A stretch of 32,000 nt of DNA, taken from contig NZ_CP042911.1 in NCBI RefSeq assembly GCF_008065095.1, positions 8,310,001 through 8,342,000 of the forward strand. The letters run 5' to 3'. Position numbers and translations under genes: made by a program. Position 1 is the stretch's first letter. Each line of letters begins with the position of its first letter. A model generated the notes under the pieces. That model saw only the letters and a list, made by a program, of their open reading frames with translations, made no database searches and was not told the DNA's origin. Positions 1,506-24,690 of this stretch are shown one piece after another. This DNA comes from Gemmata obscuriglobus. GTDB lineage: Bacteria; Planctomycetota; Planctomycetia; Gemmatales; Gemmataceae.

Positions 1506-4277
<2,772 letters not shown>

Positions 4278-4362: not shown

Positions 4363-4794
4363 CTATCCGCCGGCCGATTCAGGAAACAGCCCCAGCTCCG
4401 CGAGTAGAATCCGAAGAGCGAGCATGTCGGTATCGTTGATACCCAGCGCGGAAATGGTGGCGCGGGCAGTGGCCGTGCGTCCGCGCAACGCGCCTGAGCC
4501 GTCATCGGCCCAAGCAAAATGCAACTCCCAATCATCAATACGGGGATTGAACAGAGCAGCGGTTTCGCCGGTTTCGGGATCCGAACCGGTGGCGGCCGTC
4601 CATTTGTGAGCGTTGCAGTGCGGGCAGGTCAGGGCGAGGTTGCTGAGGTCGGTGGTGCCGCCATCGCGCCGCGGAAGGATGTGGTCGATGGGAAAGGTGG
4701 CCACCTGCCCGCGGGTCGGGAGGTGGCAATATTCGCAACGATGACCGGCGCGTGTGGCGACTTCGGACCGGCGCACCTCGGAGAAGGCGCTCAC
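4363..4794 (-). CDS. Small stand-alone HNH endonuclease (143 aa)
   Basis: HNH core CEYCHLP...FPIDHILPRRDGGTTDLSNLALTCPHCNAHKW. I chose the GTG at 4794 as start because it overlaps the TGA of the upstream ORF (GTGA at 4791-4794). The longer 267-aa ORF N-terminus is an Arg/Pro/Ala-rich artefact. Confidence 0.75.
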   Translation of the reverse strand: MSAFSEVRRSEVATRAGHRCEYCHLPTRGQVATFPIDHILPRRDGGTTDLSNLALTCPHCNAHKWTAATGSDPETGETAALFNPRIDDWELHFAWADDGSGALRGRTATARATISALGINDTDMLALRILLAELGLFPESAGG

Positions 4795-5066
4795 GCCGGG
4801 TTCGCGAGTTCGGGGCAGATCGACACGAGCCGGCGCAGGGCCAGTTCTGCTTCGAGTTTTTCGGCGGACCGCTGCTGTGTGAACGCGACCCACGCGAGCA
4901 GTTCGGCGCGTTCGTCCGCGGTCAGCGCGTCCTTTCGCTCGCCGAGTTCCAGCCCGCGGCGGTCGAGTTCGTGCGGCAGCGTGTAGTTCGCAACCCGACG
5001 GAGCGCAGCGGCAGACGACAGAAGGGCCGTTCGCCATTCGGGTTCGATCGGCGCGTTGGCTGACAT
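4791..5066 (-). CDS. Hypothetical 91-aa protein, translationally coupled to the HNH gene
   Basis: ATG at 5066, balanced helical-looking composition (LTADERAELLAWVAFTQQRSAEKLEAELALRRL). Its stop overlaps the GTG of the downstream HNH gene. I recognise no family. Confidence 0.55.
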   Translation of the reverse strand: MSANAPIEPEWRTALLSSAAALRRVANYTLPHELDRRGLELGERKDALTADERAELLAWVAFTQQRSAEKLEAELALRRLVSICPELANPA

Positions 5067-5146
5067 TGCTTCCCTCCCGGCTCCCGTGCATTGTAATGCG
5101 ATCGCCCCCGCGCCTCAAACCGATCAACCCACAACAGGCGGAATTC

Positions 5147-5524
5147 ATGCTCCTCGGCCTTCGCACCCTGATCGTTCACGTTCGCCCCGAGCAGCTCGAC
5201 GCCGCGAAGCAGTGGTACACCGGGTTCGCGGGCGTCGCGCCCTACTTCGACCAGCCGTTTTACGTGGGCTTCAACGTGGGCGGGTTCGAGTTGGGGCTGC
5301 ACCCCGAAGGGGTAATTGGGCCGGGCGGGACGGTCGCCTACTGGGGTACCGCCGACATCACATCAGAGCTGGCACGCGTCACGGGACTCGGTGCGACGGT
5401 CGTGGACCCGATTCAGGACGTGGGCGAGGGTATCAAAATGGCGACTGTCGCGGACCCGTTCGGGAACCACATCGGGCTGATCCAGAACCCGCACTTCTCA
5501 ATCAGTCCCAAGTCCCAGGTCTGA
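5147..5524 (+). CDS. VOC (glyoxalase/bleomycin-resistance/dioxygenase) superfamily protein, 125 aa
   Basis: ATG at 5147 (MLLGLRTLIVHV...). The pattern is typical of VOC proteins: FYVGFNVGGFELGLHP...GTVAYWGTADI...GATVVDPIQDVGEGIKMATVADPFGNHIGLIQNP. The upstream part of the 5066 ORF is probably not translated. Confidence 0.8.
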   Translation: MLLGLRTLIVHVRPEQLDAAKQWYTGFAGVAPYFDQPFYVGFNVGGFELGLHPEGVIGPGGTVAYWGTADITSELARVTGLGATVVDPIQDVGEGIKMATVADPFGNHIGLIQNPHFSISPKSQV

Positions 5525-7110: not shown

Positions 7111-8595
7111 ATGCCCCTCCGCCCCCCCGCCCGGGCCCCGCACTGGCTCACGGACCGCCGCGCGTTCCTGCGCGACGCCGGCACCGGCCTCGGCGGCATC
7201 GCGCTCGCCGCGCTGCTGGCCGAGCACGGGCTGCTCGCCGGCGACGCCGCGTCCCCCCTCCGGCCCGACATCAAGCCCAACGCCCCGCTGGGCGCCCGCG
7301 AGCCGCACTTCGCGCCGAAGGCGAAGCGGGTGCTGGTCGTGTTCTGCTCCGGCGCGGTCAGCCACGTCGACACCTTCGACTACAAGCCCGAGCTGGTGAA
7401 GCGCGACGGCCAGCCCCTGCCGGGCGGCGACAAGCTGGTCACGTTCCAGGGCGCGCAGGGGAACCTCGTCAAACCGATCTGGGCGTTCAGGCCGCGGGGC
7501 CAGAGCGGCAAGATGGTCTCGGATCTGCTGCCGAACCTCGCCGGGCTCGCGGACGAGATGTGCTTCGTTCACTCGATGACCGCGAAGAGCAACACGCACG
7601 GCCCGGCCGAGAACCAGATGAGCACCGGGTTCACGCTCGACGGGTTCCCCAGCACCGGCGCGTGGGTGAGCTACGCGCTGGGGAGCGAGAACAAGGACCT
7701 GCCCGCGTTCGTCGCGATCCCGGACCCGCGCGGCGTGCCGCAGGTGGGGCCGAACAACTGGGGCAGCGCGTTCCTGCCCGGGGTGTTCCAGGGCACGCCG
7801 TTCAGCGCCGACAAGCCGATCCCGCACCTCGCCCGGCCCGCGGGCGTGACCGCGAAGGCGGACGCCGACACCCGCGACTTCCTGAAGCTGCTCAACGCCG
7901 AGCACGCGCAGGCCCGCGGCGGCGACTCGCAACTGAGCGCGCGGATCGCGAGCTACGAGATGGCCGCCCGGATGCAGCTCCGCGCCGCGGAGGTCGCCGA
8001 CCTGTCGAAAGAGCCCGCGCGGGTTCACACGGAATACGGCACGGACGACAAGGACCGCTGGAAGGCCGGGTTCGCGCGCAACTGCCTGCTCGCCCGGCGG
8101 CTCCTGGAGCGCGACGTGCGGTTCGTCCAGCTCTTCAACGGCGCGTACGCGATGGGCGAGGGCGTCGGCAACTGGGACGGGCACAAGACCATCAAGCCGC
8201 AGTACGAGACCCACGCGGCGGTTCTCGACAGGCCGCTCGCGGCCCTGCTGACCGACCTCAAGCGCACGGGGCTGCTCAAAGACACGTTAGTGGTGTGGGT
8301 GACGGAGTTCGGGCGGATGCCGACGTTCCAGAAGGGGGCGAGCGGCCGCGACCACAACCCGAAAGGGTTCACGGTGTGGCTCGCGGGGGCCGGGGTGAAG
8401 CGCGCGTTCAGCCACGGCGCGACGGACGACTTCGGCTACGAGGCCGCGGACAAGAGGGCCACGATCTACGACCTCCACGCCACGGTGCTGCACCTCCTGG
8501 GGCTGAACCACGAGCGGCTCTCGTTCTACCACAACGGCATCGAGCGCCGGCTGACCGACGTTCACGGTGAGGTGCTGCGCGAAGTGCTCGCGTGA
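7111..8595 (+). CDS. DUF1501 domain protein (sulfatase-like fold) with a twin-arginine signal
   Basis: ATG at 7111. Tat-like [26 protein letters not shown]1501 hallmarks [27 protein letters not shown] and [10 protein letters not shown]. Confidence 0.9.
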
Positions 8596-8773: not shown

Positions 8774-9919
8774 ATGGCCAAGAAGAAGCCCGCCGCGAGC
8801 GCGAAACCCGCGGCCAAGAAGCCCGCGGCCAAGAAGCCCGCGGCCAAGAAGGCCGGCGCCGGGAAGAAGCCCCCGACCGACTGGGTCGCGGTGCTGAAGA
8901 GCGGCGCCGCCGGTGTGGCGAAGTGGAACCGGCTCACCGGCCCGGCGCGGGCCGCAATCCCACTGACCGGGGCCGACCTGAGCGGCGCGGACCTGTCCGG
9001 CATCGACCTGCGCGGGGTGTCGGCCGACGGCGCCGTACTCGCTGGGTGCAAGCTCGCGGGCGCCCGCCTCGACGGAACCCGGCTCGGCGGCACCTGGAAA
9101 AAGGCGTCGTTCGCCGGGGCCGACCTCACCGGCGCGGGGCTCACCGGCGGCGTGTTCGACGCGACCGACTTCACCGGTGCGGCGCTCGCGGGCGCGAAGC
9201 TGTCGGGCAGTAGCTTCCGCAAGGGGACGTTCGCGGGCGCGAACCTCACCGGGGCCGACGCCACCAACGTCGGCTTCACCGGGACCGACTTCACCGGCGC
9301 GACGCTGACCGACGTGGCCCTGATGCACTCCTACTTCGACAAGGACACGGCGTGGCCCGAGGGCTTCGTGCCGCCGGGTGAGATGCACTGGCACGGCACG
9401 GGCACCGACCCGCGGCTGACGGGCCGGGGCAAGAACGCGGCTGCTCACGACATCAACGGGCTGATGGCCCGGCTCCACACGGTCATCGACGAGAAGCGGA
9501 TGGCCCGCACGCTCGACATGCTCAAGAAGCAGCGGAACCAGATCTTCTCCGAGGTCGAGCCGGCGATGGTGCGCGGCATCGTGAAGAGCCAGCGCGACAT
9601 CGACACGGTCTACTCGTGCGTGCTCACGGAGGACGGCACCTACTCGTGCGGCACCGCGGACATGGCCCAGTGTCGCGGGCTCGCGGACGAGCCGTGCAAG
9701 CACCTGCTGGTGCTGGTGATCGGCCTGGCCCGGGCCGGACAGCTCGACCCCGCGACCGCGGACAAGTGGGTCGTGGCCGCGAACAGCAAGGGGCCGCGGT
9801 GGAACAAGACGGTGCAGAACCACATCGCCGACTCGTTCCTGAAGTACAAGGGCGCGCAGGCCGGCGAGATCGACTGGCGCCCGACCGAGACCGTGCCGGA
9901 AGACTTCTACGCGATGTGA
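8774..9919 (+). CDS. Lys/Ala-rich tail + pentapeptide-repeat + SWIM-like module protein (paralog 1, 381 aa)
   Basis: ATG at 8774 (MAKKKPAASAKPAAKKPAAKKPAAKK). About 30 pentapeptide units (ADLSGADLSGIDLRGVSADGAVLAGCKLAGARLDG...) end in FDKDTAWPEGF. The C-terminal module is VKSQRDIDTVYSCVLTEDGTYSCGTADMAQCRGLADEPCKHLLVLVIGL, and the protein ends DWRPTETVPEDFYAM. Confidence 0.85.
   Translation: MAKKKPAASAKPAAKKPAAKKPAAKKAGAGKKPPTDWVAVLKSGAAGVAKWNRLTGPARAAIPLTGADLSGADLSGIDLRGVSADGAVLAGCKLAGARLDGTRLGGTWKKASFAGADLTGAGLTGGVFDATDFTGAALAGAKLSGSSFRKGTFAGANLTGADATNVGFTGTDFTGATLTDVALMHSYFDKDTAWPEGFVPPGEMHWHGTGTDPRLTGRGKNAAAHDINGLMARLHTVIDEKRMARTLDMLKKQRNQIFSEVEPAMVRGIVKSQRDIDTVYSCVLTEDGTYSCGTADMAQCRGLADEPCKHLLVLVIGLARAGQLDPATADKWVVAANSKGPRWNKTVQNHIADSFLKYKGAQAGEIDWRPTETVPEDFYAM
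8807..8851 (+). repeat. Perfect 3 x 15-nt tandem repeat (cccgcggccaagaag) encoding (PAAKK)3
   Basis: The units 8807-8821, 8822-8836 and 8837-8851 are identical by direct reading. They lie inside the N-terminal tail of paralog 1. Confidence 0.9.
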
Positions 9920-9996
9920 CCGCGCCGGAGCGCGAGTCTCTGGCTACCAGACCGTCGCCCTTCCAGGGCTCTCATACACGTATCCGGTGATACTGC

Positions 9997-10079
9997 CGCT
10001 TGTGTTGACGAGCCGCGACCGCCAGGGAGCGGGATACGTGGCACCGCTCCCTGGCGGTCGCGGCTCGTCAACACAAGCG
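9997..10079. repeat. Perfect 36-bp inverted repeat with an 11-nt loop in the paralog 1-2 spacer
   Basis: I checked base by base that 9997-10032 pairs perfectly with 10044-10079, leaving loop 10033-10043 (gatacgtggca). It lies 78 nt after the stop of paralog 1. Confidence 0.9.
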
Positions 10080-10196
10080 ACACCGCAGATGGGTTCATGT
10101 ATCAGACGCGTGTTGGTTTTAGCCCCAAAGGGGCGGCCGCTGAGTAGCCAGGGGCGAGAGCCCCTGGGTTCCGATCGCACCGAGTGAGGTACGCCC

Positions 10197-10718
10197 ATGG
10201 CGAAATCCAAGGCCACACCGAAGATCCCCGAAACGCGCACGCCGTGGGACGACTTCCTCGACGCGGCGCAGGGCGTCACCGACTCCGGGGCGCTGTCGAA
10301 GGCGCTCACGATGCTCCGCGGCGAGCGGTTCCAGCTCTACGCGGACGTGCAGACCGAGTTCGTATGCGGGATCGTGCGGAGCCAGTCGTCGGCGTCGCGC
10401 GTGTACGTGTGCCGGCTCGCGCAGGACGGGCGGTACTCGTGCTGCACCCAGAACCTGATCCAGTGCGTGGTGTCGCGCGGGGCGCCGTGCAAGCACCTGC
10501 TGGTGCTCGTGGCCGGGCTGGTGAAGGCCGGACAACTCGCCCCCGCGACCGCGCTCGACTGGCTGCACAAGGCCCGCCGCATGGGGAAGACGGCGGACGG
10601 CCACAAGCCCGACAAGGACGTGGTGACCGCGACGTTCCTGAAGTACAAGGGCGCGGAGGCCGGTGAGGTGGACTGGCGGCCCACGGAAACCGTGCCCGAA
10701 GACTTTTACGCGATGTGA
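10197..10718 (+). CDS. Stand-alone SWIM-like module protein (paralog 2, 173 aa)
   Basis: ATG at 10197 (MAKSKATPK). Contains LTMLRGERFQLYADV...GIVRSQSSASRVYVCRLAQDGRYSCCTQNLIQCVVSRGAPCKHLLVLVAGL and ends FLKYKGAEAGEVDWRPTETVPEDFYAM. It aligns with the C-terminal modules of paralogs 1 and 3. Confidence 0.85.
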   Translation: MAKSKATPKIPETRTPWDDFLDAAQGVTDSGALSKALTMLRGERFQLYADVQTEFVCGIVRSQSSASRVYVCRLAQDGRYSCCTQNLIQCVVSRGAPCKHLLVLVAGLVKAGQLAPATALDWLHKARRMGKTADGHKPDKDVVTATFLKYKGAEAGEVDWRPTETVPEDFYAM

Positions 10719-10876
10719 TGTGACCGCGCCGGAGCGCGGGCCTCTGGCCCGCCTGGCTTCGCGTGTCGAGCGACGTTTCGGCGGACCGAGTTGCGATGCC
10801 ACGCGCGGAGCGGCGGGCGGGACGCCCGCGGTCCCAGGGAACCGAACAAACAGTCGGAGCCTTGAAAGGTTTGCCC

Positions 10877-13372
10877 ATGGCGAAGGCAGCGAAAGCAGCA
10901 AAAGCGAAGGCACCGACCGGCAAACTCGCCGGGCAGAAGGTCGCGCTCGTCGGCAAGTTCTGGTCCCAGCAGACGGAACTCGAACAGGCGATCAAGGACG
11001 AGGGCGGTACGCTCGTGGATGGCGAGCAGGCCGCTCCGGACATTGTGGTTCAAGGGGCAGGGACGCGCGGCAAGCCGCCCGCCGCCGTCGCGAAGATCCA
11101 GAAGCAGCACCCCAGCGTGCGGGTGCTGGATGCCGCGGGCTTCTACCAGCTCGTTCTGCCCACGGCCGACGAGTTCCTTGCAATTCTTAAGGGGCCGCGT
11201 CGCGATCACCAGTTCTGGAGCCGGATGCAGTCACGACTCAGCGTCAGCGGCGCCACGCTCGACCTGGCTGGGACGGACTTCCGCACGATCGAACTCGCGG
11301 AGGCGACCCTGTACCGCATCACCCTCGACGGCAGCGACTTCCGCAATTGCTCTCTCAGCAACGTGTCTTTTGACAAGATTAAGGGAGCCAAGTTCGACGG
11401 CGCCCGGTTCACCGAAGGCTCGTTCTCGGACGCCGAGAATTGCAGCCTTAAGAACGTCAAGATGGATGGTGTCCGCTGGAACCCAGCGGAGTTCGTGCGG
11501 TGCGACTTTTCGGGCGCGACGCTGAAGATCCGCACCGGAAGTTTCACCCGCGCGACCGATTGCACGTTCAAGAAGACCGACCTTAGCGGCGCGGAACTCG
11601 AGCAGTCGCACTTCGGCGGGTGCGACTTCACCGGAGCGGATCTGTCGCACGCCAAGCTGCAAAAGACCGATTTCACAGCCGCGAACCTCGCCGGCGCGAC
11701 GTGCGTGGACGCCGACCTGCGCGGTACCAACTTCACAAACGCGGACCTGCGTAAGGCCAACTTCCGCGGTGCGAACCTCGCCGGGGCGGATCTCACCGGG
11801 GCGAACGTGGCTGGGGCCGACTTCACCGGCGCGAACCTCACCGGGGCGAAGGTGGACGGCCTCGACGCCTCGAAGGCAAAGGGCTTCGTTCACAAGCCGC
11901 CCCGCGCGGTCGGCCCGAACATGCTCGAACTCGCGAAGGCGGCGAAACAATCCAAACAGCTCACCGCGTCGATCGAGTTGGGGCTGACCGGAACGGAGCA
12001 CGTCGAGCTGCACGCGTCGCTGCGCAGTTACGGCACACACCAGTACCCCGGAGGGGGGTACATGCACTACCAGCCCGAGCGCCGGCACACGTTCAGCTCT
12101 TCCGTAGACGCGCCGACGTTCGAGCAGGGGATGCTCAACCTCGTCGATCTCTGGTCGAAGGGGGCGCCGCGGCTCGGTTCGATCAAAGTCGAGAGCAAAA
12201 AGTGCCCGCTGAAGCCGAAAGAGCTGCTCGCGCTGGCCCGTGCCGCGTGGTGCGAGGCGCTGGAGGTCCCGATCCCCAGCGCCGACGAATGGGCGCGGCA
12301 GGAACAGGCGCAAACCGCGGCCGGCGACAAGGTGCGCGAACAAATGTTGACGGACCTGCGCGGCGGTAAAGCCGGGGTCGCCCGGTTCAACGCCCGCACC
12401 GACAAGGAGCGCGAGGCGCTCGGCTCGCTTCGCGACACGGACCTCAGCAACGAGAAGCTGGCCGGGGCGCGGCTCAACAACCTCGACTTGCGCGGGGCGA
12501 AGTTCGACGGCGCGATGCTGAGTGAGGCGTCGTTCTCTGGCTCCCAGATTCAGGGCGCGAGTTTCGCCGACGTACCGGCCCGTAAGGCGAATTTCGCGAG
12601 CGCCAGAGCGGCCGACGCGGTGTTCCGCGGCGCGATCCTGGCGAACGCGAACCTGCGGGCGGCTACGTTCCTGCGGACCAACTTCCAGAACGTCGATCTG
12701 ACGGGTGCCGATTTCGCCTTCTCCGACCTGCGCGGCGCCGACTTCACCGGCGCGACGCTGAAAAACGCCTCGTTCTCTCAAGCGAAGTTCGACGCCGACA
12801 CCAAGTTCCCGAAGGGCCTGACCGCGCCCGAAGGCGCGAACTGGGTCGGGGAAGGACCGCACCCCGGGAAAGTGGTGCCAGCCGTCGCCCTGGCGGTCGC
12901 GGGCAGCCTCGATTTCGACACGTTCCTCAAGGAACTGCCTCGGAAGGTAGATCCCTCGCGGATCGAAAAAGCGGCGGATATGCTCAAGGCGGAACGCTTC
13001 CAACTGTTCGCCGACGTGACCGACACACACCTCGTGGGCGTGGTCAAGAGCCAGTCGTACTCGGACCTGGTGTATTCGTGCCGGCTCGCGAGCGACGGCA
13101 CGTTCTGCTGCGGCACGCAGAACCTGAACGTTTGCGGCGGGCTGAAGGGGGCGCTGTGCAAGCACCTGCTGGTGCTGGTGGTGGGGCTCGCGAAATCCGG
13201 GAAATTGGACCCGGCGGCGGCGGACAACTGGGTGACGGCGAGTAAGGCGCACAAGCCGACATTGAACAAGGACGCCCTGAGTGAGACCTTCTTGAAGTAC
13301 AAGGGCGCGGAAGCCGGCGAGATCGACTGGCGGCCGACGGAGACGGTTCCCGAGGACTTCTACGCCATGTGA
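10877..13372 (+). CDS. BRCT-like + two pentapeptide-repeat blocks + unknown central domain + SWIM-like module protein (paralog 3, 831 aa)
   Basis: ATG at 10877 (MAKAAKAAKAKAPTGK) in the same gcccatggcgaa context as paralog 2. BRCT-like segment LAGQKVALVGKF...ELEQAIKDEGGTLVDG...DIVVQGAG...VRVLDAAGFYQLV (about 10916-11162). Pentapeptide blocks lie at about 11240-11880 and 12420-12830. The C-terminal module is VKSQSYSDLVYSCRLASDGTFCCGTQNLNVCGGLKGALCKHLLVLVVGL, and the protein ends DWRPTETVPEDFYAM. Confidence 0.85.
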   Translation: MAKAAKAAKAKAPTGKLAGQKVALVGKFWSQQTELEQAIKDEGGTLVDGEQAAPDIVVQGAGTRGKPPAAVAKIQKQHPSVRVLDAAGFYQLVLPTADEFLAILKGPRRDHQFWSRMQSRLSVSGATLDLAGTDFRTIELAEATLYRITLDGSDFRNCSLSNVSFDKIKGAKFDGARFTEGSFSDAENCSLKNVKMDGVRWNPAEFVRCDFSGATLKIRTGSFTRATDCTFKKTDLSGAELEQSHFGGCDFTGADLSHAKLQKTDFTAANLAGATCVDADLRGTNFTNADLRKANFRGANLAGADLTGANVAGADFTGANLTGAKVDGLDASKAKGFVHKPPRAVGPNMLELAKAAKQSKQLTASIELGLTGTEHVELHASLRSYGTHQYPGGGYMHYQPERRHTFSSSVDAPTFEQGMLNLVDLWSKGAPRLGSIKVESKKCPLKPKELLALARAAWCEALEVPIPSADEWARQEQAQTAAGDKVREQMLTDLRGGKAGVARFNARTDKEREALGSLRDTDLSNEKLAGARLNNLDLRGAKFDGAMLSEASFSGSQIQGASFADVPARKANFASARAADAVFRGAILANANLRAATFLRTNFQNVDLTGADFAFSDLRGADFTGATLKNASFSQAKFDADTKFPKGLTAPEGANWVGEGPHPGKVVPAVALAVAGSLDFDTFLKELPRKVDPSRIEKAADMLKAERFQLFADVTDTHLVGVVKSQSYSDLVYSCRLASDGTFCCGTQNLNVCGGLKGALCKHLLVLVVGLAKSGKLDPAAADNWVTASKAHKPTLNKDALSETFLKYKGAEAGEIDWRPTETVPEDFYAM

Positions 13373-13510: not shown

Positions 13511-13614
13511 TGGTGTCTGTTTTGGTTTTGTCTTTGTGGCACAGACATTCCTGTCTGTGCGGCCTTCTCGCGCCGCACAGACAGGAATGTCTGTGCCACA
13601 AGAAACAGACACCA
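13511..13614. repeat. Nested palindrome: a 30-bp perfect inverted repeat (8-nt loop) whose arms are each 9-bp hairpins, plus a 12-bp outer stem
   Basis: 13534-13563 pairs perfectly with 13572-13601 (checked base by base). Each arm contains gcacagaca-NNNN-tgtctgtgc (loops ttcc and ggaa). The outer tggtgtctgttt (13511-13522) pairs with aaacagacacca (13603-13614) across a bulge. Confidence 0.9.
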
Positions 13615-13695
13615 CAAGCCGGACCGTGAATTAGCTCGGTGGTGCCAGTCAGCCGCTTGAACAACTTGGTGGCCCGCTGGGTCGGGGAGTGGACA

Positions 13696-13850: not shown

Positions 13851-13941
13851 TTGTGTCGTAACGGCGGGCGTGACCGGGTGTAACGTTTCGTGTCGGCGCG
13901 GGGCTGCGACGACCGTAGAAAACGGACAAAAGGCCGGACCG

Positions 13942-14292
13942 ATGGACGAAATCGCCGAACTCCGCGACGCCCTCGACCGGCTGCACGCCGCGATGGACGA
14001 CCTCGTGGTGCGCGGGGTGCGGGCCGCGGGTTCAGCCCACCTCGCGCGCCTGACCTCTCTTCGCGACGAGTTCCGCACCGCCGGCGCTGAGCACTTGGCC
14101 GAGAAGCTGACGACGCTCGTCGATGCCGTACAGGCCGGCGAGCGGTCCGCGGCCGGGGCGCTCATGCGAGCGGTCACGACGTTCCGGCTGTTCGACCGGA
14201 TGCTGACGCTCGAAGTGGCCCGCGGCGTCCTCGCGCCGCCCCCGCCGGCGCCCGAGTTCGGCGACGAAGACGCACACGAAGAGGACGCCTAG
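13942..14292 (+). CDS. Hypothetical helical protein with an acidic Pro-rich tail (116 aa)
   Basis: ATG at 13942 (MDEIAELRDALDRLHAAMDDLVVRG...). Coding-like composition, ending PPPPAPEFGDEDAHEEDA. The TAG at 14290-14292 lies 2 nt before the GTG of the next gene. I recognise no family. Confidence 0.7.
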   Translation: MDEIAELRDALDRLHAAMDDLVVRGVRAAGSAHLARLTSLRDEFRTAGAEHLAEKLTTLVDAVQAGERSAAGALMRAVTTFRLFDRMLTLEVARGVLAPPPPAPEFGDEDAHEEDA

Positions 14293-14294
14293 CC

Positions 14295-15416
14295 GTGCTA
14301 CCGCCCGCCGCCGACCGCCCGAAGCTCCGCGCCACGCTCGACCAACTGTCGATCGCGGTCGAAGAACTGCTTCTCGGCGGGCTCACCACCGCCTCCGATG
14401 CGACCCGGCAGACGCTCGCCGGGGCGATGCAAGAGGCCGCCCGGATGCGGCTCCTGCGCCTCGGCGGCACGCTCCGCGTCGCCACCGACGAACTCGGCCG
14501 GTTCACGCGCCAGGAGAAAACGTTCTCGCGCCGCCGGTTCACGTTCTTCCTGAACCGCGCGTGGCTGCTCAGCCGCGGGATGATTCACGCGCTCGACGCG
14601 AGCGACGAGAAGGAGTACGACCGCCTCACCTGGGCGCCGCCGTCGCAACCGCTGCCCGCCGTCGAGGTGGTGAACCTTGGGGTCGTGAAGAAGGTCGCCG
14701 AGAACGCGTTCGCGATGTTCGAGTTCCGGCTGCGGGCGGTCGCGGACGCCGGGCCGATCAAAGCGGGACAGAAGGTGAGCTGGTCCACGGTGTTCCCCCT
14801 GAAGAAGGACCAGGACATCCCGCCGGAGGGGTTCCTCCACCTGCCGCAGAAGCAGAAGTTCTCGCCGTTCCTGTTCCTCGAACGCACCAGCCTCAACGTC
14901 ACGAACGCGGCCGTGTCGGGCGACGAGGTCGGCGGCTGGAAGCTGTCGCTGACGGACCAGAGCACGGTCACGGTGGGCAAGCCGTTCGCGCAGTGGGACC
15001 GCTACCTCCAGTGGTCCGCGCCGGCCGCGGCGGAGCGCCTGGCGAAGCACGCGGCCGGGCCGCTCGACCTGGACACCGAGCTTCAGGAAGAGGTCGTGAT
15101 CCGCGACTACGACATCGGCAAGCCCGGGGACGGCGACGAACCGGGCCAGACGGTGTACGAACTGACCGCCGGGCGGCTGAAGCTCCACGCGGTCGTCGGC
15201 GCGAACCCGGAAGGCAAGGCGCTGCGGGCCGCGTTCGAGGAGGTGCGCAAGGCGAAGGTGCCGAACCCGCCACTGTTCGGCGTGATGCACTACGAGCGGT
15301 GCCGGCTCGTGCTCCAGCCCCTGACCACGTTCGCCGGCGGCCCGGACTACATCACGATCTCCAAGGAGAACGTGAACAAGGCCGCGCTGCTCAAGGCGAT
15401 GAACTTTACCTCGTAA
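14295..15416 (+). CDS. Hypothetical protein (373 aa); its N-terminus resembles the preceding 116-aa protein
   Basis: GTG at 14295. KLRATLDQLSIAVEELLLGGLTTASDATRQTL aligns with ELRDALDRLHAAMDDLVVRGVRAAGSAHLARL of the upstream gene (11 of 31 identical by eye). The rest is mixed alpha/beta-looking with balanced composition. The antisense 769-aa ORF is an Arg/Gly/Pro-rich artefact. Confidence 0.75.
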   Translation: MLPPAADRPKLRATLDQLSIAVEELLLGGLTTASDATRQTLAGAMQEAARMRLLRLGGTLRVATDELGRFTRQEKTFSRRRFTFFLNRAWLLSRGMIHALDASDEKEYDRLTWAPPSQPLPAVEVVNLGVVKKVAENAFAMFEFRLRAVADAGPIKAGQKVSWSTVFPLKKDQDIPPEGFLHLPQKQKFSPFLFLERTSLNVTNAAVSGDEVGGWKLSLTDQSTVTVGKPFAQWDRYLQWSAPAAAERLAKHAAGPLDLDTELQEEVVIRDYDIGKPGDGDEPGQTVYELTAGRLKLHAVVGANPEGKALRAAFEEVRKAKVPNPPLFGVMHYERCRLVLQPLTTFAGGPDYITISKENVNKAALLKAMNFTS

Positions 15417-15437: not shown

Positions 15438-16631
15438 ATGGCCAAGAAACCCGTACCCGCCGCCCCGACACCCGCGCTCGCGACCGCCGCGGGGCCGGCG
15501 CCGACCGTGACGCCCGACACCGTGCTCCGCGAGCCCGCCGAGCGGCGGTACGCGGACCAGCTCGAGGCGCTGCGCCAGAACGACGCCGACACCCCGCCGG
15601 CCAACTGGAAGCTGTCGCCCCGCGCGGTGCTGGCGTACATCGTCGGCACGCCCAAACCGCTCAAAGCCACCATCAACGGTAAAGCGGTCGAGGTGCCGAT
15701 CACGCGCAAGTTCTTCGGCGACGACGGGATCGTGGAGCGGTCGATCGTGACGCTCGCGTCCGAGCGCGCGCTCCTGCTGGTCGGCGAGCCGGGCACCGGG
15801 AAGAGCTGGCTGTCCGAGCACCTCGCCGCGGCCATCTGCGGCACGTCGCTGCTCACCATCCAGGGCACCGCGGGGACGACCGAGGAGCAGATCAAGTACT
15901 CGTGGAACATCGCGCAACTGATCGCGCACGGGTACAGCCCGCAGAACATGGTTCCGTCGCCCGCCGTGATCGCGATGCGGGCCGGGGCGCTCTTCCGCTT
16001 CGAGGAGCTGAGCCGCGTCGTGCCGGACGTTCAGGACGCGCTCGTGTCGATGCTGTCGGACAAGGCGGTCGCGGTCCCCGAGCTGCCCGACAACGCGATG
16101 GTGTTCGCGAAGCCGGGGTTCAACATCATCGCCACGGCCAACACCCGCGACCAGGGCGTGAACGAGCTCTCGGCCGCGCTGAAGCGCCGGTTCAACTACG
16201 TCCACATCCCGATCGTGGGCGACCAGAAGACCGAGGTGAAGATCGTTCAGCAGCGGTCGGCGGAGCTGCTGGAGCGGTACAACCTGCCGGCGAAGCTCAG
16301 CCCGCCGGTGATCGAGCTGCTGGCGACGGTGTTCCGCGAGATCCGCAACGGCAAGAGCAGCGACGGGGTGAGCATCAAGAAGCCGAGCACCACCCTCTCC
16401 ACCGCCGAGGCGATCGGGGTGGCGCTGGACGCGGCGCTGCACGCCCGGTTCTTCGGTGCCGGCGAGGTGGGGCCGGCGGACATCGCCCGCAACATGATCG
16501 GCGCGGTGGTGAAGGAGGACCAGGATGACAAGAACGCGCTGAAGGAGTACGCGACCGTGGTCGCGAAGAAGCGCGGCGCGAAAGAGAAAGCCTGGAAGGA
16601 GTTCCACGACGCGCTCGTGGAGCAGTTGTAG
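15438..16631 (+). CDS. AAA+ ATPase, MoxR/AAA_5 (YehL-like) type, 397 aa
   Basis: ATG at 15438. Walker A LLLVGEPGTGKS, Walker B-like ALFRFEELSRV, sensor-1 FNIIATANT, and ALKRRF with the arginine finger region. Confidence 0.9.
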   Translation: MAKKPVPAAPTPALATAAGPAPTVTPDTVLREPAERRYADQLEALRQNDADTPPANWKLSPRAVLAYIVGTPKPLKATINGKAVEVPITRKFFGDDGIVERSIVTLASERALLLVGEPGTGKSWLSEHLAAAICGTSLLTIQGTAGTTEEQIKYSWNIAQLIAHGYSPQNMVPSPAVIAMRAGALFRFEELSRVVPDVQDALVSMLSDKAVAVPELPDNAMVFAKPGFNIIATANTRDQGVNELSAALKRRFNYVHIPIVGDQKTEVKIVQQRSAELLERYNLPAKLSPPVIELLATVFREIRNGKSSDGVSIKKPSTTLSTAEAIGVALDAALHARFFGAGEVGPADIARNMIGAVVKEDQDDKNALKEYATVVAKKRGAKEKAWKEFHDALVEQL

Positions 16632-16819: not shown

Positions 16820-16853
16820 TTCTCGCACTCAGCCCTCTGCGGTGAACACTCTT

Positions 16854-19283
16854 ATGTCTTCATCTTCTGCTACTTTGACGGACGCCGGGCTGGACCCCGC
16901 CGAGATCGCGCGGCGCGTCGACGCCGTGTTCGCGGACCCGCTGTACTGGTTCCCGGTGCGGCACCACTCGCCCACCACCGCGCGCCACGTCCAGAGCGCG
17001 ATTGCCGCGCGCAGGCCGAAGGTGATCTTCATTGAGGGGCCGTTCGAGGCCAACGACCTCATCCCCTTCGTGACGGACCCGGCGACCGCGCCGCCGGTCG
17101 CGATCTACTCCTCGTACCGCGACGACGACAACGTGCTGGGGCTGAACGGCCACGTCAGCCCGGCGGCCGACATCCCGGCCCGGTTCGCGGTCTGGTACCC
17201 GCTCACGCCGTACTCGCCCGAGTACGTGGCGATGAAGACGGCGGCGACCGTCAAAGCGGCCGTGGTGTTTATCGACCTGCCGCACTACGCCCGCGTCGAG
17301 CGTCACGTGCCGGAGCCGCAGGGCCAGCAGCCGCCGCGCGAGGCGCCCAGCGTCGCGCCCGACGAGGACCGGCTCATCACGTCGAGCGGGTTCTACAAGC
17401 ATCTGGCCGAGGCCGCCGGGTTCAAGAGCTGGAGCGAGGCGTGGGACACGCTGTTCGAGAACCCCGAGGGGACCGATTACGAGGCGTTCCGCCGCGAGCT
17501 GGCGACGTTCTGCGCCGCCGCCCGCGCGACCGCGGACCACGCCGCCGAGCACGCCGAAGGCACCGTCGAGCGCGAGCGGCACTTCCTGAAAGTGATCGCC
17601 GACACGCTCGCCGCGCGCAAGCTGAAGCCCGCGGACGCGATGGTCGTCTGCGGGGGCTTCCATCTGTTCCTCGACCGTGACGACAAGGCCGCGCCGCCGC
17701 CGTGTCCGGAGGGGACCGTTTACACCACGGTCGTGCCGTACTCGTACTTCCGCATCTCCGAGCTGTCCGGGTACGGGGCCGGGAACCGGGCGCCGCAGTT
17801 CTACCAGACGTGCTACGACCTCACCGCCGCCGGGCGCGCGAGCGACATCGCGATGGAGCACGCCATCGCAGTGCTGCGGACGATGCGCAAGGGCGGCGAC
17901 CCGCTCTCCACCGCCGACGCGATCTCGGTCACGCACCACGCCGGGATGCTCGCGCGCCTGCGGGGCCGCGCCCACCCGACGCTCGACGACATCTCCGACG
18001 CGCTCGTCACGTGCTGCTGCAAGGGCAACCCGAACGAAGAGGGCCGGAAGCTCCGCGACGCGATGGACCAGGCCGGGATCGGCAACCGGATCGGCAAGGT
18101 CACGTCGAAGATCGGCCGGCTGCCGATCGTGAACGACTTCCACGCGCAGATCGCCGACCTCGAACTCGGCGAGGTGCTCGGCAAAGAAAAGAAGATGTCG
18201 GCGAAGCTCGACAAGCGCGACCCGCTCGCGGCGCGGCGGTCCGCGTTCCTGCACCGGGTGTCCTACCTGAAGGTGCCGTTCGCCGCGATCACCGGCACCG
18301 GCGGGGACTTCTCCGGAACGCTGTTCCGCGAGGAGTGGCACCTCAAGTGGGACCCGCGCACCGAGCCCGCGCTGATCGAGCAGAACCTGTACGGCGACAC
18401 GGTCGAGTCGGCGGCGCTGAACCGGCTCCGGGAGGCGCTCGCCGAGGCCGGGAGCAGCGCCGGCCAGACCTGCGCGCGGCTGCTCGAAGCGGTCGATATG
18501 GACATGCCGGACCTCGTGTCCGCCGCCGAGGACGCGTGCGGGCCGGCGGTCGATACGGACCCGTCGTTCGCGTCGCAGGCGACCGCGCTCCAGTACCTCG
18601 GCCGACTGGAACAGTACGCCGCGTTCCGCGGGCTGCGGCGCGACGTGATCGCGGAACTGCTGAACCGCTGCTTCGACCGCGCGTGCTTCGCGCTGCCCAA
18701 CGCCGCCAACGTGCCGGAAGAGGAGCAGCAGGGCGTCGTGGACGGCCTCATCGGGCTGGCCGAGGTCGTGCTGCGCGACGGCGTGCGGTACGACCGCACC
18801 CTGTTCGCACAGGCGGCGCAGAACGCCGCCGCGCAATCGACGGTCCCGTTCCTGCGCGGAGCGTTCCTGGGGCTGCTGTGCGAGATCCGGGTGATTGCGC
18901 CGGGCGTGCTCGCCGCCGAGGTGTCGAACCTGGCGCAGGCGTCCACGGAGGTGATGGTCACGGCGGGCGACCTGCTCGACGGGATGCTGGCGGTGTCGCG
19001 CACGTCGCTGATGCTCGGCGCCGACGCGCTGGTCACCGCAATCGACGACCTCTTGAAGGCCGCAGAATGGGACCCGTTCCTGGTGATGCTTCCGCGGCTC
19101 CGGGCGGCGATCGAGCGGCTGTCGAACCCGCAGAAGGACGCGCTCGCGGCGACCGTCGCGCGGCACTACGGGCTCGACGGCTCGACCGACCTGCGCGCCG
19201 TCAGCGGGAGCCTGGGCGCGACAGCACTGGTGGCCCGGCTTGATGCCGCGGTGGCCGCAACATTGCGGAACTGGCCGTTGTGA
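16854..19283 (+). CDS. DUF5682 (YehM-like) protein, 809 aa
   Basis: ATG at 16854. The N-terminal YWFPVRHHSPTTARHVQSAIAARRPKVIFIEGPFE matches my recollection of the DUF5682 signature (RHHxPxxA ... EGP). It sits between the AAA+ and VWA genes, as in yehLMP-type clusters. The antisense 810-aa ORF is rejected on composition. Confidence 0.8.
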   Translation: MSSSSATLTDAGLDPAEIARRVDAVFADPLYWFPVRHHSPTTARHVQSAIAARRPKVIFIEGPFEANDLIPFVTDPATAPPVAIYSSYRDDDNVLGLNGHVSPAADIPARFAVWYPLTPYSPEYVAMKTAATVKAAVVFIDLPHYARVERHVPEPQGQQPPREAPSVAPDEDRLITSSGFYKHLAEAAGFKSWSEAWDTLFENPEGTDYEAFRRELATFCAAARATADHAAEHAEGTVERERHFLKVIADTLAARKLKPADAMVVCGGFHLFLDRDDKAAPPPCPEGTVYTTVVPYSYFRISELSGYGAGNRAPQFYQTCYDLTAAGRASDIAMEHAIAVLRTMRKGGDPLSTADAISVTHHAGMLARLRGRAHPTLDDISDALVTCCCKGNPNEEGRKLRDAMDQAGIGNRIGKVTSKIGRLPIVNDFHAQIADLELGEVLGKEKKMSAKLDKRDPLAARRSAFLHRVSYLKVPFAAITGTGGDFSGTLFREEWHLKWDPRTEPALIEQNLYGDTVESAALNRLREALAEAGSSAGQTCARLLEAVDMDMPDLVSAAEDACGPAVDTDPSFASQATALQYLGRLEQYAAFRGLRRDVIAELLNRCFDRACFALPNAANVPEEEQQGVVDGLIGLAEVVLRDGVRYDRTLFAQAAQNAAAQSTVPFLRGAFLGLLCEIRVIAPGVLAAEVSNLAQASTEVMVTAGDLLDGMLAVSRTSLMLGADALVTAIDDLLKAAEWDPFLVMLPRLRAAIERLSNPQKDALAATVARHYGLDGSTDLRAVSGSLGATALVARLDAAVAATLRNWPL

Positions 19284-19293
19284 TGAAGACATG

Positions 19294-19398
19294 TTTCACC
19301 GCAGAGGGCACGAGAGGGCGCAGAGAGAAAGAAGGCTCGGCTTCATCACGCCGTTTCTCGTTTTCTCTCTGCGCCCTCTCGTGCCCTCTGCGGTGAAA
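19294..19398. repeat. Perfect 37-bp inverted repeat with a 31-nt loop in the DUF5682-VWA spacer
   Basis: I checked base by base that 19294-19330 pairs perfectly with 19362-19398. It starts 11 nt after the TGA at 19281-19283. The arms are built of GCAGAGRG-like units. Confidence 0.9.
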
Positions 19399-19434
19399 AT
19401 CGGCCTTTCGAGTGCGACCATTGGGAGCGCGAAC

Positions 19435-20616
19435 GTGACAACCGGTAACGAGAGCGACGCCGGTCCAGTACCGGCCGACCCGCACACCCTCGCGCGCTGG
19501 CGCCTGGTGCTCGGCAAGACCGCCGAGCAGCACGGCATCAACTGCGGGGGCGACGGCGACGCCGAGCGGGTGGAAGAGCTGGTCGGGTTCCTGTTCGAGC
19601 CCGGCGGTGATGGGAACGGTGGCGGCCGGGGCGGGCGCGGGCGTTCGGCGTCGCGCGCCGGCGGCAGCGGCGGCCCGCAGCTCACCGTCCCGGACTGGGT
19701 GGACGCGGTCAACGAGCTGTTCCCGAACCAGTCCAAAGAGGTGATGCAGCGGGAGCTGGTCAAGCGCCGCGGGATCGCGGAGCTGATGGAGAAGCCCGAG
19801 CTTCTGGAGAAGATCGAACCGAACCTAGAGCTGGTGAAAACGCTGCTCACCCACCGCGGGCTGTTGAACGAAAAGACCCGCGTACTGGCGCGCAAGATCA
19901 TCGAGCAGGTGGTCGAAGAGCTGAAGCGGAAGATGCAGGTTCAGGTCGAGCAGGCGATCACCGGCGCGATTCGTCGGGATCGGCACTCGCCGCGGAAGGT
20001 GTTCCGCAACCTGGACCTCAAGACCACGCTGCGCCGGAACCTCAAGAACTACAGCGCGGAGAAGGGCAAGCTGCTGGTCGATCAGGTGTACTTCTACGCC
20101 GCCGAGCGGAAGAAGAAGCCCTGGCACGTGATCGTGGTGGTGGACCAGTCCGGGTCGATGCTCGAGAGCGCGATCTTCTCCGCGGTGATGGCGAGCATCT
20201 TTGCCGAACTGCCGGCCGTGAAGACCTCGCTGGTGCTGTTCGACACCGAGGTGGTGGACCTGTCGGACCAGGTGGGGCAGCCGGTGGACGTGCTGCTCTC
20301 GATCCAGCTCGGCGGCGGCACCGACATCACGAAGGGGCTGATGTACGCGAACGAGCTGGTGCGCCAGCCGCAGCGTACCATCGTCGTTCTCATCACGGAC
20401 TTCTACGAGGGCCGACCGGAGGCCGATCTGGTCGCGCAAACGCGGCTGATGGCCGACGGCGGGGTGCGCATGATCGGCCTGGGCGCGCTCGGGTACGACG
20501 CCCGACCGTCGTACAACAAGGACACCGCCGGGAAGTGCCGCAAGGCCGGGATGGACATCCTGGTCTGCACGCCGGAGAAGCTCGCGGAGTGTATGGCACA
20601 AATCATCCGCGGCTGA
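19435..20616 (+). CDS. VWA domain protein, CoxE-like (YehP-like), 393 aa
   Basis: I place the start at GTG 19435, after the palindrome, because the ORF-track start at 19240 would translate the hairpin. N-terminal LARWRLVLGK is typical of CoxE-type VWA proteins. MIDAS motifs: VVVVDQSGSM (DxSxS), LGGGTDITKG and VVLITDFYEG. Confidence 0.85.
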   Translation: MTTGNESDAGPVPADPHTLARWRLVLGKTAEQHGINCGGDGDAERVEELVGFLFEPGGDGNGGGRGGRGRSASRAGGSGGPQLTVPDWVDAVNELFPNQSKEVMQRELVKRRGIAELMEKPELLEKIEPNLELVKTLLTHRGLLNEKTRVLARKIIEQVVEELKRKMQVQVEQAITGAIRRDRHSPRKVFRNLDLKTTLRRNLKNYSAEKGKLLVDQVYFYAAERKKKPWHVIVVVDQSGSMLESAIFSAVMASIFAELPAVKTSLVLFDTEVVDLSDQVGQPVDVLLSIQLGGGTDITKGLMYANELVRQPQRTIVVLITDFYEGRPEADLVAQTRLMADGGVRMIGLGALGYDARPSYNKDTAGKCRKAGMDILVCTPEKLAECMAQIIRG

Positions 20617-20693: not shown

Positions 20694-21644
20694 GTGCGCG
20701 TGCGCTCAGTCGCCATTCTCTTCGCCATTTCGCTCATCGCCGCCTGCCCGCCGCGGCGCGGGCGGGTTGTGTACGTCCCGCGGTGCCCGCAACCTGCGCC
20801 GGTGGTCATCAGTGACCCCGTCAGCCCGCCAGCGACCCAGGTGGAAGAGCCGGCGAAGCCCAAAACGGCCGAAAAGCCCGCGGAGCCCGTTGCCCCGCTG
20901 GTCGCGGAACACCTGAAGGCATGGGAAGAGAAGACCGCCGCACTGACGAACGTCCGGGCCGAGGTCGGGCTCACCCGCACCGACAACGTGAGCCAGAAGT
21001 CCACAGCCTACAGCGGGCAGGTGCTGTGCATGAAGCCCAACTGTGCCGTTCTGCGCCTCAATAATGCCGCGGACAAAACTGGCACCGACTACGAGGCGTA
21101 CATCTGCAACGAGACGGCGGCGTATTGGTACAGCGGGCTCGCAAAGACGGTGACCGAGTTCAGGCGCCCCCCTGCTGATCAGGCGGCAGACGCGGTGCCG
21201 GATGATAACCCCGTCCGTCGGTGGTGGCGGTCACGCCTGCACGAACCGGCTCAGCTCCTCCAGCGCATTCCGCTGCAGTTCTTTACGCGCGTCAAGGCGA
21301 GTGAGCTGCAAGAGCGACTCGACATCTCCGTCTACAAGACCGACGAGAATTACATCTACCTGGACATCAAGCCGCGGCTCGGCAAGGACCAGCACGAGTT
21401 CAAGCACCTACGATTGGCCCTGTACGGCACGGGACCGGCTACCGCAAAGGTCGCCTACCTGCCGGCCCAGGTGTATGTGCTCAAGCCGAACGACGACACG
21501 GAAGTGTGGAAGTTCACAAACCCCCAGGTGGATCTTCCGGGCGTGGAGCCGAAGCACTTCCAGTACGTCGAGATCAAAGAGGAAGGGTGGAAGCTCTTCA
21601 AAGCCGATGGAAGTACGAGTGAGACCGAGGAGCCGAAACCGTAG
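20694..21644 (+). CDS. Lipoprotein with a LolA-like / TIGR03009-type planctomycete domain (tentative)
   Basis: GTG at 20694 or 20700, the latter 6 nt after GGAGG. Signal peptide and lipobox VAILFAISLIAAC, then a Pro/Lys/Glu-rich linker. The segment HLKAWEEKTAALTNVRAEVGLTRTDNV...YSGQVLCMKPNCAVLRL...YEAYICNETAAYWY resembles the planctomycete LolA-like family, from memory. Confidence 0.75.
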   Translation: MRVRSVAILFAISLIAACPPRRGRVVYVPRCPQPAPVVISDPVSPPATQVEEPAKPKTAEKPAEPVAPLVAEHLKAWEEKTAALTNVRAEVGLTRTDNVSQKSTAYSGQVLCMKPNCAVLRLNNAADKTGTDYEAYICNETAAYWYSGLAKTVTEFRRPPADQAADAVPDDNPVRRWWRSRLHEPAQLLQRIPLQFFTRVKASELQERLDISVYKTDENYIYLDIKPRLGKDQHEFKHLRLALYGTGPATAKVAYLPAQVYVLKPNDDTEVWKFTNPQVDLPGVEPKHFQYVEIKEEGWKLFKADGSTSETEEPKP

Positions 21645-21742
21645 TGGGTGTAGTGCCGCGGTCCGAGGGCGGGTGCCCTCGGGGCTACCGTGAGGGCGAA
21701 GGGCGCTCCAGGCTGTCGAGCGCGGCTCCGGTGAGGGTGGCG

Positions 21743-22648: not shown

Positions 22649-22669
22649 CGTGGTACCGTTTAAATAACG

Positions 22670-23719: not shown

Positions 23720-23746
23720 CCCGAGGTCGGAACCGGAAGAGCCGTC

Positions 23747-24664: not shown

Positions 24665-24690
24665 CCGCCCGTCGCACATATCATGAGCGG

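Follow-up and report, generated by a model that had tools for sequence, protein, structure and literature searches.

How can three neighbouring genes diverge over most of their length and still encode exactly the same fifteen final residues? This question is posed by a 32,000-nucleotide stretch of Gemmata obscuriglobus DNA (NCBI RefSeq assembly GCF_008065095.1, contig NZ_CP042911.1, positions 8,310,001 to 8,342,000 of the forward strand), referred to below as the window, with positions counted from its first letter. Three genes, here called A, B and C, follow one another in the window and encode proteins with the common ending ...FLKYKGA(E/Q)AGE(I/V)DWRPTETVPEDFYAM-stop. An earlier note, made from the letters of this stretch alone, had described them as tandem paralogs with a common Cys/His module and identical last 15 residues, and the open reading frames (ORFs) and their alignment bear this out: the C-terminal modules (about 160 aa) are 50-53% identical in the alignment, with 62 invariant columns that include four Cys, the C-K-H of the CKHLLVLV segment and the last 15 residues. 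Such an identity may be a mere relic of how the genes arose or the result of selection on the peptide, and in the latter case the tail should serve a purpose. As argued below from substitution patterns, conservation and gene neighbourhood, the tail is held by purifying selection and is, on balance, probably a docking handle coupling interchangeable heads to the products of an adjacent conserved gene cluster.

The evidence for selection lies in the contrast between the codons of the tail and the residues that they encode. Synonymous differences separate the copies at 10 of the 15 tail codons, as in the PEDF segment, which is written CCG GAA GAC TTC, CCC GAA GAC TTT and CCC GAG GAC TTC in the three genes, just as the earlier note had quoted it. 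Counted by the Nei-Gojobori method, the proportion of synonymous differences (pS) in the tail is 0.65-0.76 for all three pairs and that of nonsynonymous differences (pN) is 0, as compared with a pS of 0.38-0.53 and a pN of 0.36-0.42 in the core, taken as the module minus its last 26 codons. In this genome of 69% G+C, third codon positions seem near saturation, so that ratios of nonsynonymous to synonymous rates (dN/dS) are not to be trusted for the module core, while the contrast in pN is unambiguous. Plain gene conversion, against which the note had proposed to set the synonymous divergence of the tail and its flanks, would reduce pS in the tail below that of the flanks; the opposite is observed, which argues against conversion.

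The age of the paralogs points the same way. With the tail excluded, each module is only 36-45% identical to its two neighbours in the same genome (36-43% for A against B and C) and 63-95% identical to its orthologs in G. algarum, Gemmata sp. IIL30, Frigoriglobus and other Gemmataceae; the modules of A and B still share 56-66% identity with an Isosphaeraceae metagenome-assembled genome (MAG). Judged by these identities the paralogs A, B and C are ancient, and the identity of their tails, going by the substitution counts, reflects purifying selection at the peptide level and not recent duplication or gene conversion, much as the note had proposed. The outcome is an extreme contrast of constraint inside one gene, in which ancient paralogs are 36-45% identical in the domain and 100% identical in the tail.

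This constraint extends far beyond Gemmata. A word-indexed search for the module returned 534 clusters, and an exhaustive profile search of 1.84 billion representatives yielded 549 with E<=1e-3, of which 360 reach E<=1e-30. Computed over 253 relatives, the C-terminal consensus reads GAEAGE[VI]DWRPTET[IVL]PED[FY]Y[AST][MLFAV]-COOH; with tail positions counted as negative numbers from the C-terminal end, the residues D, W, R, P, T(-9), P(-7), E(-6) and D(-5) are near-universal, each at 251-252 of the 253. Column by column, the tail is about as conserved as the putative zinc ligands of the module, C72, C82, C90, C98 and H100 (gene B numbering), and it is preceded by a conserved Gly/Ala-rich hinge (GAEAGE). 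The earlier note would have counted a lack of conservation in orthologs as refuting its claim; the tail proves near-invariant in about 250 relatives from three phyla. The motif was not found in the literature searched.

The tail is, moreover, always a free end. In all 150 listed representatives the module extends to the last or second-last residue of the protein, and the heads that precede it vary in length from none at all to about 750 aa; in 253 of 269 database relatives, the Tyr is third from the end. A six-frame search of about 77 loci turned up 122 occurrences of the motif, all in ORFs that encode the module and none elsewhere; in 121 of the 124 module ORFs, it is followed by exactly two residues and then the stop codon. 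The motif therefore stands at a fixed distance from the carboxyl end and is linked exclusively to the module. Its few variable positions carry a further signal: among diverged paralogs of the same genome, the residues at -8 (p=0.004), -4 (p=0.002) and -1 (p=0.0006) agree more often than in shuffles, in a test that controls only partly for relatedness and short conversion tracts, and no such within-genome concordance is seen at the control positions -2, -20 and -21. Position -8, for instance, is Val in all three copies of G. obscuriglobus and of G. algarum, and Ile in most other genomes. This agreement within genomes points to a shared receptor.

The module that carries the tail matches no Pfam or NCBIfam model. 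The earlier note had read its Cys pattern as a variant of the SWIM signature, which is plausible. Five Cys/His positions (C72, C82, C90, C98 and H100) are about 100% conserved in the family, and the C-x-H element, C98-K-H100 in B, is invariant and stands at the start of a helix. In the AlphaFold2 (AF2) model of B, with a predicted local distance difference test score (pLDDT) of 84.8 and a predicted template modelling score (pTM) of 0.80, two helices and four strands are followed by the CKHLLVLV helix, two more helices and a low-confidence tail; strands 69-75 and 80-84 and helix 99-110 are consistent with SWIM-type strands leading into a helix at C-x-H. In a profile alignment (hhalign), C90...C98-K-H100 falls weakly in register with the first SWIM motif of Escherichia coli YehQ, and UniRef names the ortholog of Gemmata sp. 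G18 a 'SWIM-type domain-containing protein'. The canonical CxCxnCxH is incomplete, as the note had said: the CxC position reads C90-V-V in B, C-R-G in A and C-G-G in C. The conserved upstream Cys (C72 and C82/C83 in B), which sit on the two preceding strands, presumably supply the missing zinc ligand in place of the second Cys of CxC. The Pfam SWIM model (PF04434) is not matched by the modules of B and C at E<=10 or by that of A at E<=1, and a Foldseek search with the model of B returned nothing significant (best E 0.19 in the PDB and 0.015, for a viral protein, in BFVD). The module is plausibly SWIM-like, and is called so here rather than filed as a SWIM member because the signature is incomplete, the Pfam model unmatched and the YehQ register reaches only E 0.037. 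It constitutes a newly defined SWIM-like module lacking a Pfam or NCBIfam model.

Interchangeable heads precede the module. The product of gene B, 100% identical to G. obscuriglobus GobsT_70160, has none, while gene A, which matches the module profile in frame at E 1.1e-60, and gene C carry pentapeptide-repeat heads that match Pfam Pentapeptide (PF00805) at E 4.8e-23 and, over 9 stretches, at E 4.9e-63, respectively; these matches are confined to the heads and do not reach into the module or the tail. The middle domain of C (about 180 aa), lodged between its two pentapeptide blocks, has no Pfam match and is kept in many relatives. The N-terminus of C is BRCT-like only by transitivity, being homologous (E 1.8e-21) to that of the relative P0163, which scores 23.6 bits against Pfam BRCT (PF00533; cut-off 21.3); C itself has no Pfam match to BRCT, and its BRCT-like region no sequence match in the PDB. 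All three paralogs open with MAK and a Lys/Ala/Pro-rich low-complexity stretch (8774-8860, 10197-10245 and 10877-10925) that may be a non-specific DNA-binding arm; in A, this basic N-terminus weakly matches the histone-H1-like HC2 (E 0.004). Single-copy relatives, such as the one at 10001-10645 of locus L003, have an even longer basic N-terminus, rich in Pro, Thr and Lys. The constant module with variable heads described in the earlier note is found as drawn for A, B and C, but the heads are less varied across the family than this picture implied: among 78 long module-bearing relatives compared with Pfam, 73 carry pentapeptide repeats and 10 a BRCT domain, with other heads in Myxococcota.

A taxonomic scan with one genome per species gave 168 stretches encoding the module, distributed over Gemmatales, Isosphaerales, Pirellulales, Planctomycetales, Phycisphaerae, Myxococcota and Obscuribacterales, so that module and tail are carried together by three phyla (Planctomycetota, Myxococcota and the phylum containing Obscuribacterales). 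Most loci have a single module gene, and in Gemmataceae there are up to five. Five Myxococcota loci (L029, L037, L041, L062 and L068) have, immediately behind the VWA gene of the neighbouring cluster, a gene for another long module protein with the tail, in the position of yehQ in E. coli; the heads of these proteins are devoid of pentapeptide repeats, and in two of the five (L041 and L029) a BRCT domain lies just upstream of the module. Plasmid and phage collections yielded no relative, and hence no sign of mobility.

The second constant of the family is its neighbourhood (Table 1). In 34 of the 42 loci with at least 8 kb downstream of the module gene, the genes for g373, an AAA_5 ATPase, a DUF5682 protein and a VWA protein are all present, with Planctomycetota, Myxococcota and Obscuribacterales all represented; g140 usually stands ahead of g373, and this synteny of the module with five partner genes is directly observed. 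Neither g140 nor g373 belongs to a Pfam or NCBIfam family, and g373 has no sequence match in the PDB. A search with g373 returned 522 homologs, a family size similar to that of the module; the 120 listed are nearly constant in length (355-375 aa) and show 62-88% identity. The AF2 model of g373 (pLDDT 83.8, pTM 0.76) consists of a helical bundle (residues 5-112) and a beta-rich part (118-352) predicted to form tandem oligonucleotide/oligosaccharide-binding (OB) folds. Its Foldseek matches are the HIN-200 domains of AIM2, IFI16 and p202, Oxytricha TEBP-alpha, baculovirus LEF-3 and RPA, at E of about 3e-6 and probability 1.0 but with TM-scores of only 0.24-0.46, for which reason the prediction is read as 'tandem OB folds' and not as membership of any of these families. 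Eleven Arg are invariant in g373, eight of them in the helical domain. As for g140, it appears to be a stand-alone copy of this N-terminal helical domain (hhalign E 0.0018) with an acidic ending, …EFGDEDAHEEDA in the window and …EEEPEEDE in L003; in some loci its reading frame continues into that of g373, and there the two may be fused.

The remaining three partners have counterparts in E. coli. The closest solved relatives of the ATPase, a YehL homologue, are the AAA modules of midasin (PDB sequence search, E 4e-18), while the same search found no match for the DUF5682 and VWA proteins, homologous to YehM and YehP, respectively. Over 52 loci, the Walker A motif of the ATPase has invariant G116, P118, G119, K122 and S123, nearly invariant positions 120 and 121 and a variable position 117, and the DQSGS motif of the metal ion-dependent adhesion site (MIDAS) of the VWA protein is invariant in 47 of 47 loci; going by these motifs, both proteins look catalytically competent. 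The VWA gene probably starts near 19435, since its homologs are 386-391 aa long and the conserved LARWRLVLGK motif begins at residue 85 of the longest ORF in the window, which is about 70 aa longer than they are and overlaps the end of the DUF5682 gene. In loci L001 (an Isosphaeraceae MAG) and L003 (a metagenome-assembled Planctomycetota), the cluster stops at the VWA gene.

Table 1. Genes A, B and C, their tails and the downstream genes of the window (all positions relative to its first letter)
Feature	Position	Strand	Remarks
gene A, 381 aa from ATG	8774..9919	+	ORF; Lys/Ala/Pro-rich N-terminus, one pentapeptide-repeat block, Cys/His module (~9383-9916) with tail
tail of A, DWRPTETVPEDFYAM	9872..9916	+	followed by stop codon 9917-9919
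gene B, 173 aa, GobsT_70160	10197..10718	+	module alone behind short basic N-terminus
tail of B, DWRPTETVPEDFYAM	10671..10715	+	followed by stop codon
gene C, 831 aa from ATG	10877..13372	+	BRCT-like N-terminus, pentapeptide block, middle domain ~180 aa, second pentapeptide block, module (~12860-13369) with tail
tail of C, DWRPTETVPEDFYAM	13325..13369	+	followed by stop codon
g140, helical protein, ~110-140 aa, acidic C-terminus	13870..14292	+	after module genes in most loci; no Pfam match
g373	14295..15416	+	no Pfam match; predicted N-terminal helical bundle and tandem OB folds
AAA_5 (MoxR-like) ATPase, YehL homologue	15438..16631	+	Pfam AAA_5 E 1.3e-33; YehL E 3.6e-82
DUF5682 protein, YehM homologue	16842..19283	+	Pfam E 3.6e-112; YehM E 4.6e-38
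VWA_CoxE protein, YehP homologue	19240..20616 (longest ORF)	+	Pfam E 2.2e-45; YehP E 5e-84
TIGR03009 (plancto_dom_2) gene, then four tandem WD40 genes	20694-25548 (WD40 21644-25548)	+	profile matches

A near-invariant free C-terminus, in a family that stands beside an AAA+/VWA cluster in three phyla, is most likely a handle for the products of that cluster, and the docking idea put forward in the earlier note is, from sequence comparison, plausible overall. As we picture it, the 15 identical residues would be the end of a flexible C-terminal short linear motif of about 20 residues, ...KGAEAGE[VI]DWRPTET[IVL]PED[FY]Y-x-Phi-COOH, borne by a SWIM-like Cys4/His module. This motif would attach alternative proteins, namely the bare module or the module equipped with pentapeptide-repeat, BRCT or other heads, to a complex of g140, g373, the YehL-like AAA_5 ATPase, the YehM-like DUF5682 protein and the YehP-like VWA protein. 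Within a genome, the copies would all share one binding site, whether as competitors for it or as proteins handled through it. With regard to the partner, we infer binding of the tail to g140/g373 or to the MIDAS of the VWA protein in preference, then to the AAA+ ring and then to DUF5682. E. coli possesses YehL, YehM and YehP but has no tail and no detectable g140 or g373, and these two proteins may thus be partners particular to tail-bearing clusters, while the VWA MIDAS is the classical target-binding site in MoxR-VWA pairs.

Several explanations compete with a docking handle of this general kind, or narrow it down. The one that would dispense with function altogether, according to which recent duplication or gene conversion simply left the tails identical and the peptide is unconstrained, could appeal to the tandem arrangement of the genes on one strand; with a tail pS that is saturated and not below that of the flanks, with each paralog far nearer to its orthologs than to its neighbours and with a tail conserved over three phyla, it is refuted by the tail pS and pN, the family-wide conservation and the ortholog identities, and its probability is negligible. 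Binding to the WD40 propellers encoded downstream, which the earlier note had named as one option, is very improbable. Four WD40 genes do follow the cluster in the window, and the 'WRP' of the tail recalls the WRPW-COOH motif, which binds the WD40 domain of Groucho/TLE, but homologues of the WD40 and TIGR03009 genes are missing from beside the module in the 76 other loci (the sole two matches being unrelated genes on the opposite strand), and the tail is invariant even in L001 and L003, where there is nothing of the cluster after the VWA gene. WD40 docking is left unsupported by this confinement of the WD40 genes, themselves mutually paralogous (E 1e-11 to 1e-25), to a single window. The note's other candidate, the MIDAS of the VWA protein, is one among several: the VWA gene is conserved, but so are the four other partner genes. 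In this partner-specific sub-case of docking, an acidic residue of the tail (E-6, D-5, E-10 or D-15) would complete the MIDAS metal site, as befits the invariant DQSGS of a VWA protein encoded in the conserved cluster, the kinship of the ATPase with midasin and the four nearly invariant acidic residues of the tail. Target recruitment in MoxR-VWA pairs usually falls to the VWA protein, and precedents for binding at a MIDAS are provided by the ubiquitin-like (UBL) domains of Rsa4 and Ytm1 on midasin and by Rubisco on CbbO. However, E. coli-type YehL/M/P clusters contain equally good VWA (E 5e-84) and AAA (4e-82) homologues and no tail-bearing protein, and it is g140 and g373 that are without a detectable counterpart among the E. 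coli yeh-cluster proteins compared and so may be the tail-specific partners; coordination of the MIDAS metal by the tail is regarded as unlikely.

The two other alternatives locate the role of the tail elsewhere. It could be part of the structure or regulation of the module itself, packing on the SWIM-like domain or on the heads as a structural element or an autoinhibitory latch; the tail is never found apart from the module, and the AF2 model of B gives it a short strand (162-164) and a helical turn (170-172). That model nevertheless predicts the domain well and the tail with low confidence, pLDDT dropping to 78, 55 and 43 across residues 151-173. Furthermore, charged or polar residues predominate among the invariant ones and the distance to the carboxyl group is fixed, a combination that suits the recognition of a free end better than packing in a core, and the variable tail positions match between paralogs that share just 36-45% identity in their modules, all of which makes an internal role quite unlikely. 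Lastly, the tail could mark its protein for unfolding, degradation or processing, being threaded into the AAA+ pore in the manner in which CbbX pulls the C-terminus of the Rubisco large subunit, read by a C-terminal protease or PDZ domain (Phi-x-Phi-COOH), or released by cleavage at the GAEAGE hinge. An AAA+ ATPase is always encoded nearby, the Gly/Ala-rich hinge ahead of the tail is conserved, and Y-[AST]-[MLFAV]-COOH fits a class II PDZ-type or DegS-type pattern. Yet Pfam detects no PDZ domain or protease among the cluster proteins, the at least 15 invariant positions are far beyond the needs of known degrons or pore-engagement tags, and MoxR-class ATPases are remodelers and not partners of proteases, so that a tag of any of these kinds is distinctly improbable.

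Some observations weigh against the docking handle itself. An analysis of mutual information between the variable tail positions and the five partner proteins (42-53 paired loci) singled out no partner; DUF5682 was enriched, but it was so for a control column as well. The low pLDDT of the tail is compatible with its folding back on its own domain too. In three loci (L058, L075 and L079), module genes with intact tails have no g140, g373, AAA_5, DUF5682 or VWA gene within about 10 kb, although the orphan copy of L079 belongs to the same MAG as the complete cluster of L015. Finally, the within-genome concordance of the tail could in principle come from short conversion tracts confined to the tail, a source that, if recent, is argued against in Gemmata by the synonymous differences.

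Comparison with known systems helps to place the cluster. The E. coli yehL-yehM-yehP-yehQ genes (with yehF, yehH, yehI and yehK upstream) share with the Gemmata cluster homologous AAA_5, DUF5682 and VWA_CoxE proteins in the same gene order, and in both there are a Cys/His protein of SWIM or SWIM-like type and large paralogous genes upstream (yehH/yehI as compared with A/B/C). While YehQ (614-672 aa) has two canonical SWIM motifs, is encoded downstream of the VWA gene and lacks the tail, the SWIM-like module of Gemmata forms a family of its own with the invariant tail at its end, and g140 and g373 come in addition. HMM-to-sequence comparison (hidden Markov models) of A, B, C, g140 and g373 with YehQ, YehK, YehI and YehF gave no significant similarity, and DUF4132 and WGR domains have no match in the window. 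The idea that the module, g140 and g373 together amount to a split YehQ has weak, non-significant hhalign scores against YehQ to show (E 0.03-0.06), with the SWIM motif in correct register and g140 not collinear. Homology and gene order make the gene set a variant of the YehLMPQ-type cluster, itself uncharacterised; the literature searched contained no functional study of either version and no mention of DUF5682.

The pairing of a dynein-related AAA_5 ATPase with a VWA/MIDAS protein recalls midasin/Rea1 (with its MIDAS and the UBL domains of Ytm1 and Rsa4) and the MoxR-VWA pairs RavA-ViaA, CbbQ-CbbO, NorQ-NorD and CoxD-CoxE, in which the MIDAS takes hold of an acidic residue on the target for remodelling by the ATPase. 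Unlike in midasin, ATPase and VWA are separate proteins here and are joined by DUF5682, g140 and g373; moreover, no dedicated invariant C-terminal peptide is known on the targets of midasin or MoxR-VWA systems, whereas the presumed targets here carry one. In terms of mechanism, and not of family membership, the tail resembles C-terminal docking tips such as the SSB tail (DDDIPF-COOH) and the HbYX/GQYL ends of proteasome activators, which are short, acidic-aromatic, flexible, positioned by their carboxylate and hyperconserved; the OB fold, which is predicted in g373, is also a binding target of the SSB tail. The sequence is, however, unrelated to these, at about 20 residues the conserved stretch far exceeds theirs in length, the last residue is M, L, F, A or V instead of the terminal Phe of SSB, and the tail Tyr is third from the end and not penultimate, as HbYX requires. 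The MoxR-vWA-beta-propeller ternary systems (bpMoxR, PF20030) likewise combine the three kinds of genes that occur in the window, but the ATPase scores 21 bits against a cut-off of 27 and the propeller genes are not conserved with the cluster. C-terminal docking peptides and target recruitment by MoxR-VWA pairs are known principles, while the module family, its tail and g140/g373 belong to no Pfam or NCBIfam family and have no solved relatives in the PDB.

The remainder of the window is an ordinary chromosomal context, the cluster being flanked by HNH endonuclease, PSCyt1/PSCyt2/PSD1 and DUF1501 genes at 4363-5166 (-), 1506-4277 (-), 7111-8595 (+) and 26242-27567 (-). PADLOC-DB 2.0 assigned no defence model; the ATPase had weak generic P-loop matches (best E 4.5e-5, mad8) and the other seven proteins nothing. 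Between the stop codon of C and g140 lies a perfect 30-nt inverted repeat (13534-13563 and 13572-13601, with an 8-nt spacer), the arms of which are themselves palindromic and extended by flanking complementarity into a hairpin at 13511-13624, with an RNA folding energy of -87.9 kcal/mol (z = -12.6). This hairpin has no second copy in the window, no Rfam match and no T-run following it; it could be a terminator, a repetitive extragenic palindromic (REP)-like element or a regulatory hairpin dividing A, B and C from the operon that follows. Searches of the window for Rfam families and tRNAs returned nothing, and scans for promoter and terminator consensus sequences gave no more matches than shuffled sequences.

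What the cluster products act on is a matter of speculation, in which the Lys/Ala/Pro-rich N-termini, the BRCT domains, the pentapeptide repeats (which in Qnr and MfpA are known to mimic DNA), the SWIM-like module and the OB folds of g373 together suggest that they act on or sense DNA; the predicted tandem OB folds of the strictly co-occurring g373 point to DNA in particular. In the boldest form of the docking handle, and an unlikely one as matters stand, the tail would be the universal plug of a 'split midasin', made of the YehL-like AAA_5 ATPase and the YehP-like VWA protein with DUF5682 and a HIN/RPA-like OB-fold protein as further members, and this assembly would grip interchangeable DNA mimics or sensors, namely pentapeptide-repeat, BRCT and SWIM-like domains with histone-H1-like basic ends. 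If true, this would be an undescribed modular, ATP-driven system of DNA surveillance or DNA remodelling, in defence or repair, and the expansion of the paralogs in Gemmataceae would diversify what the system recognises. The YehL/YehM/YehP-type cluster ranges from E. coli to Planctomycetes, and the tail offers a sharp experimental handle on it: a synthetic peptide of the tail, or an allele lacking it, could lead directly to the binding partner and hence to what the products of the cluster act on.

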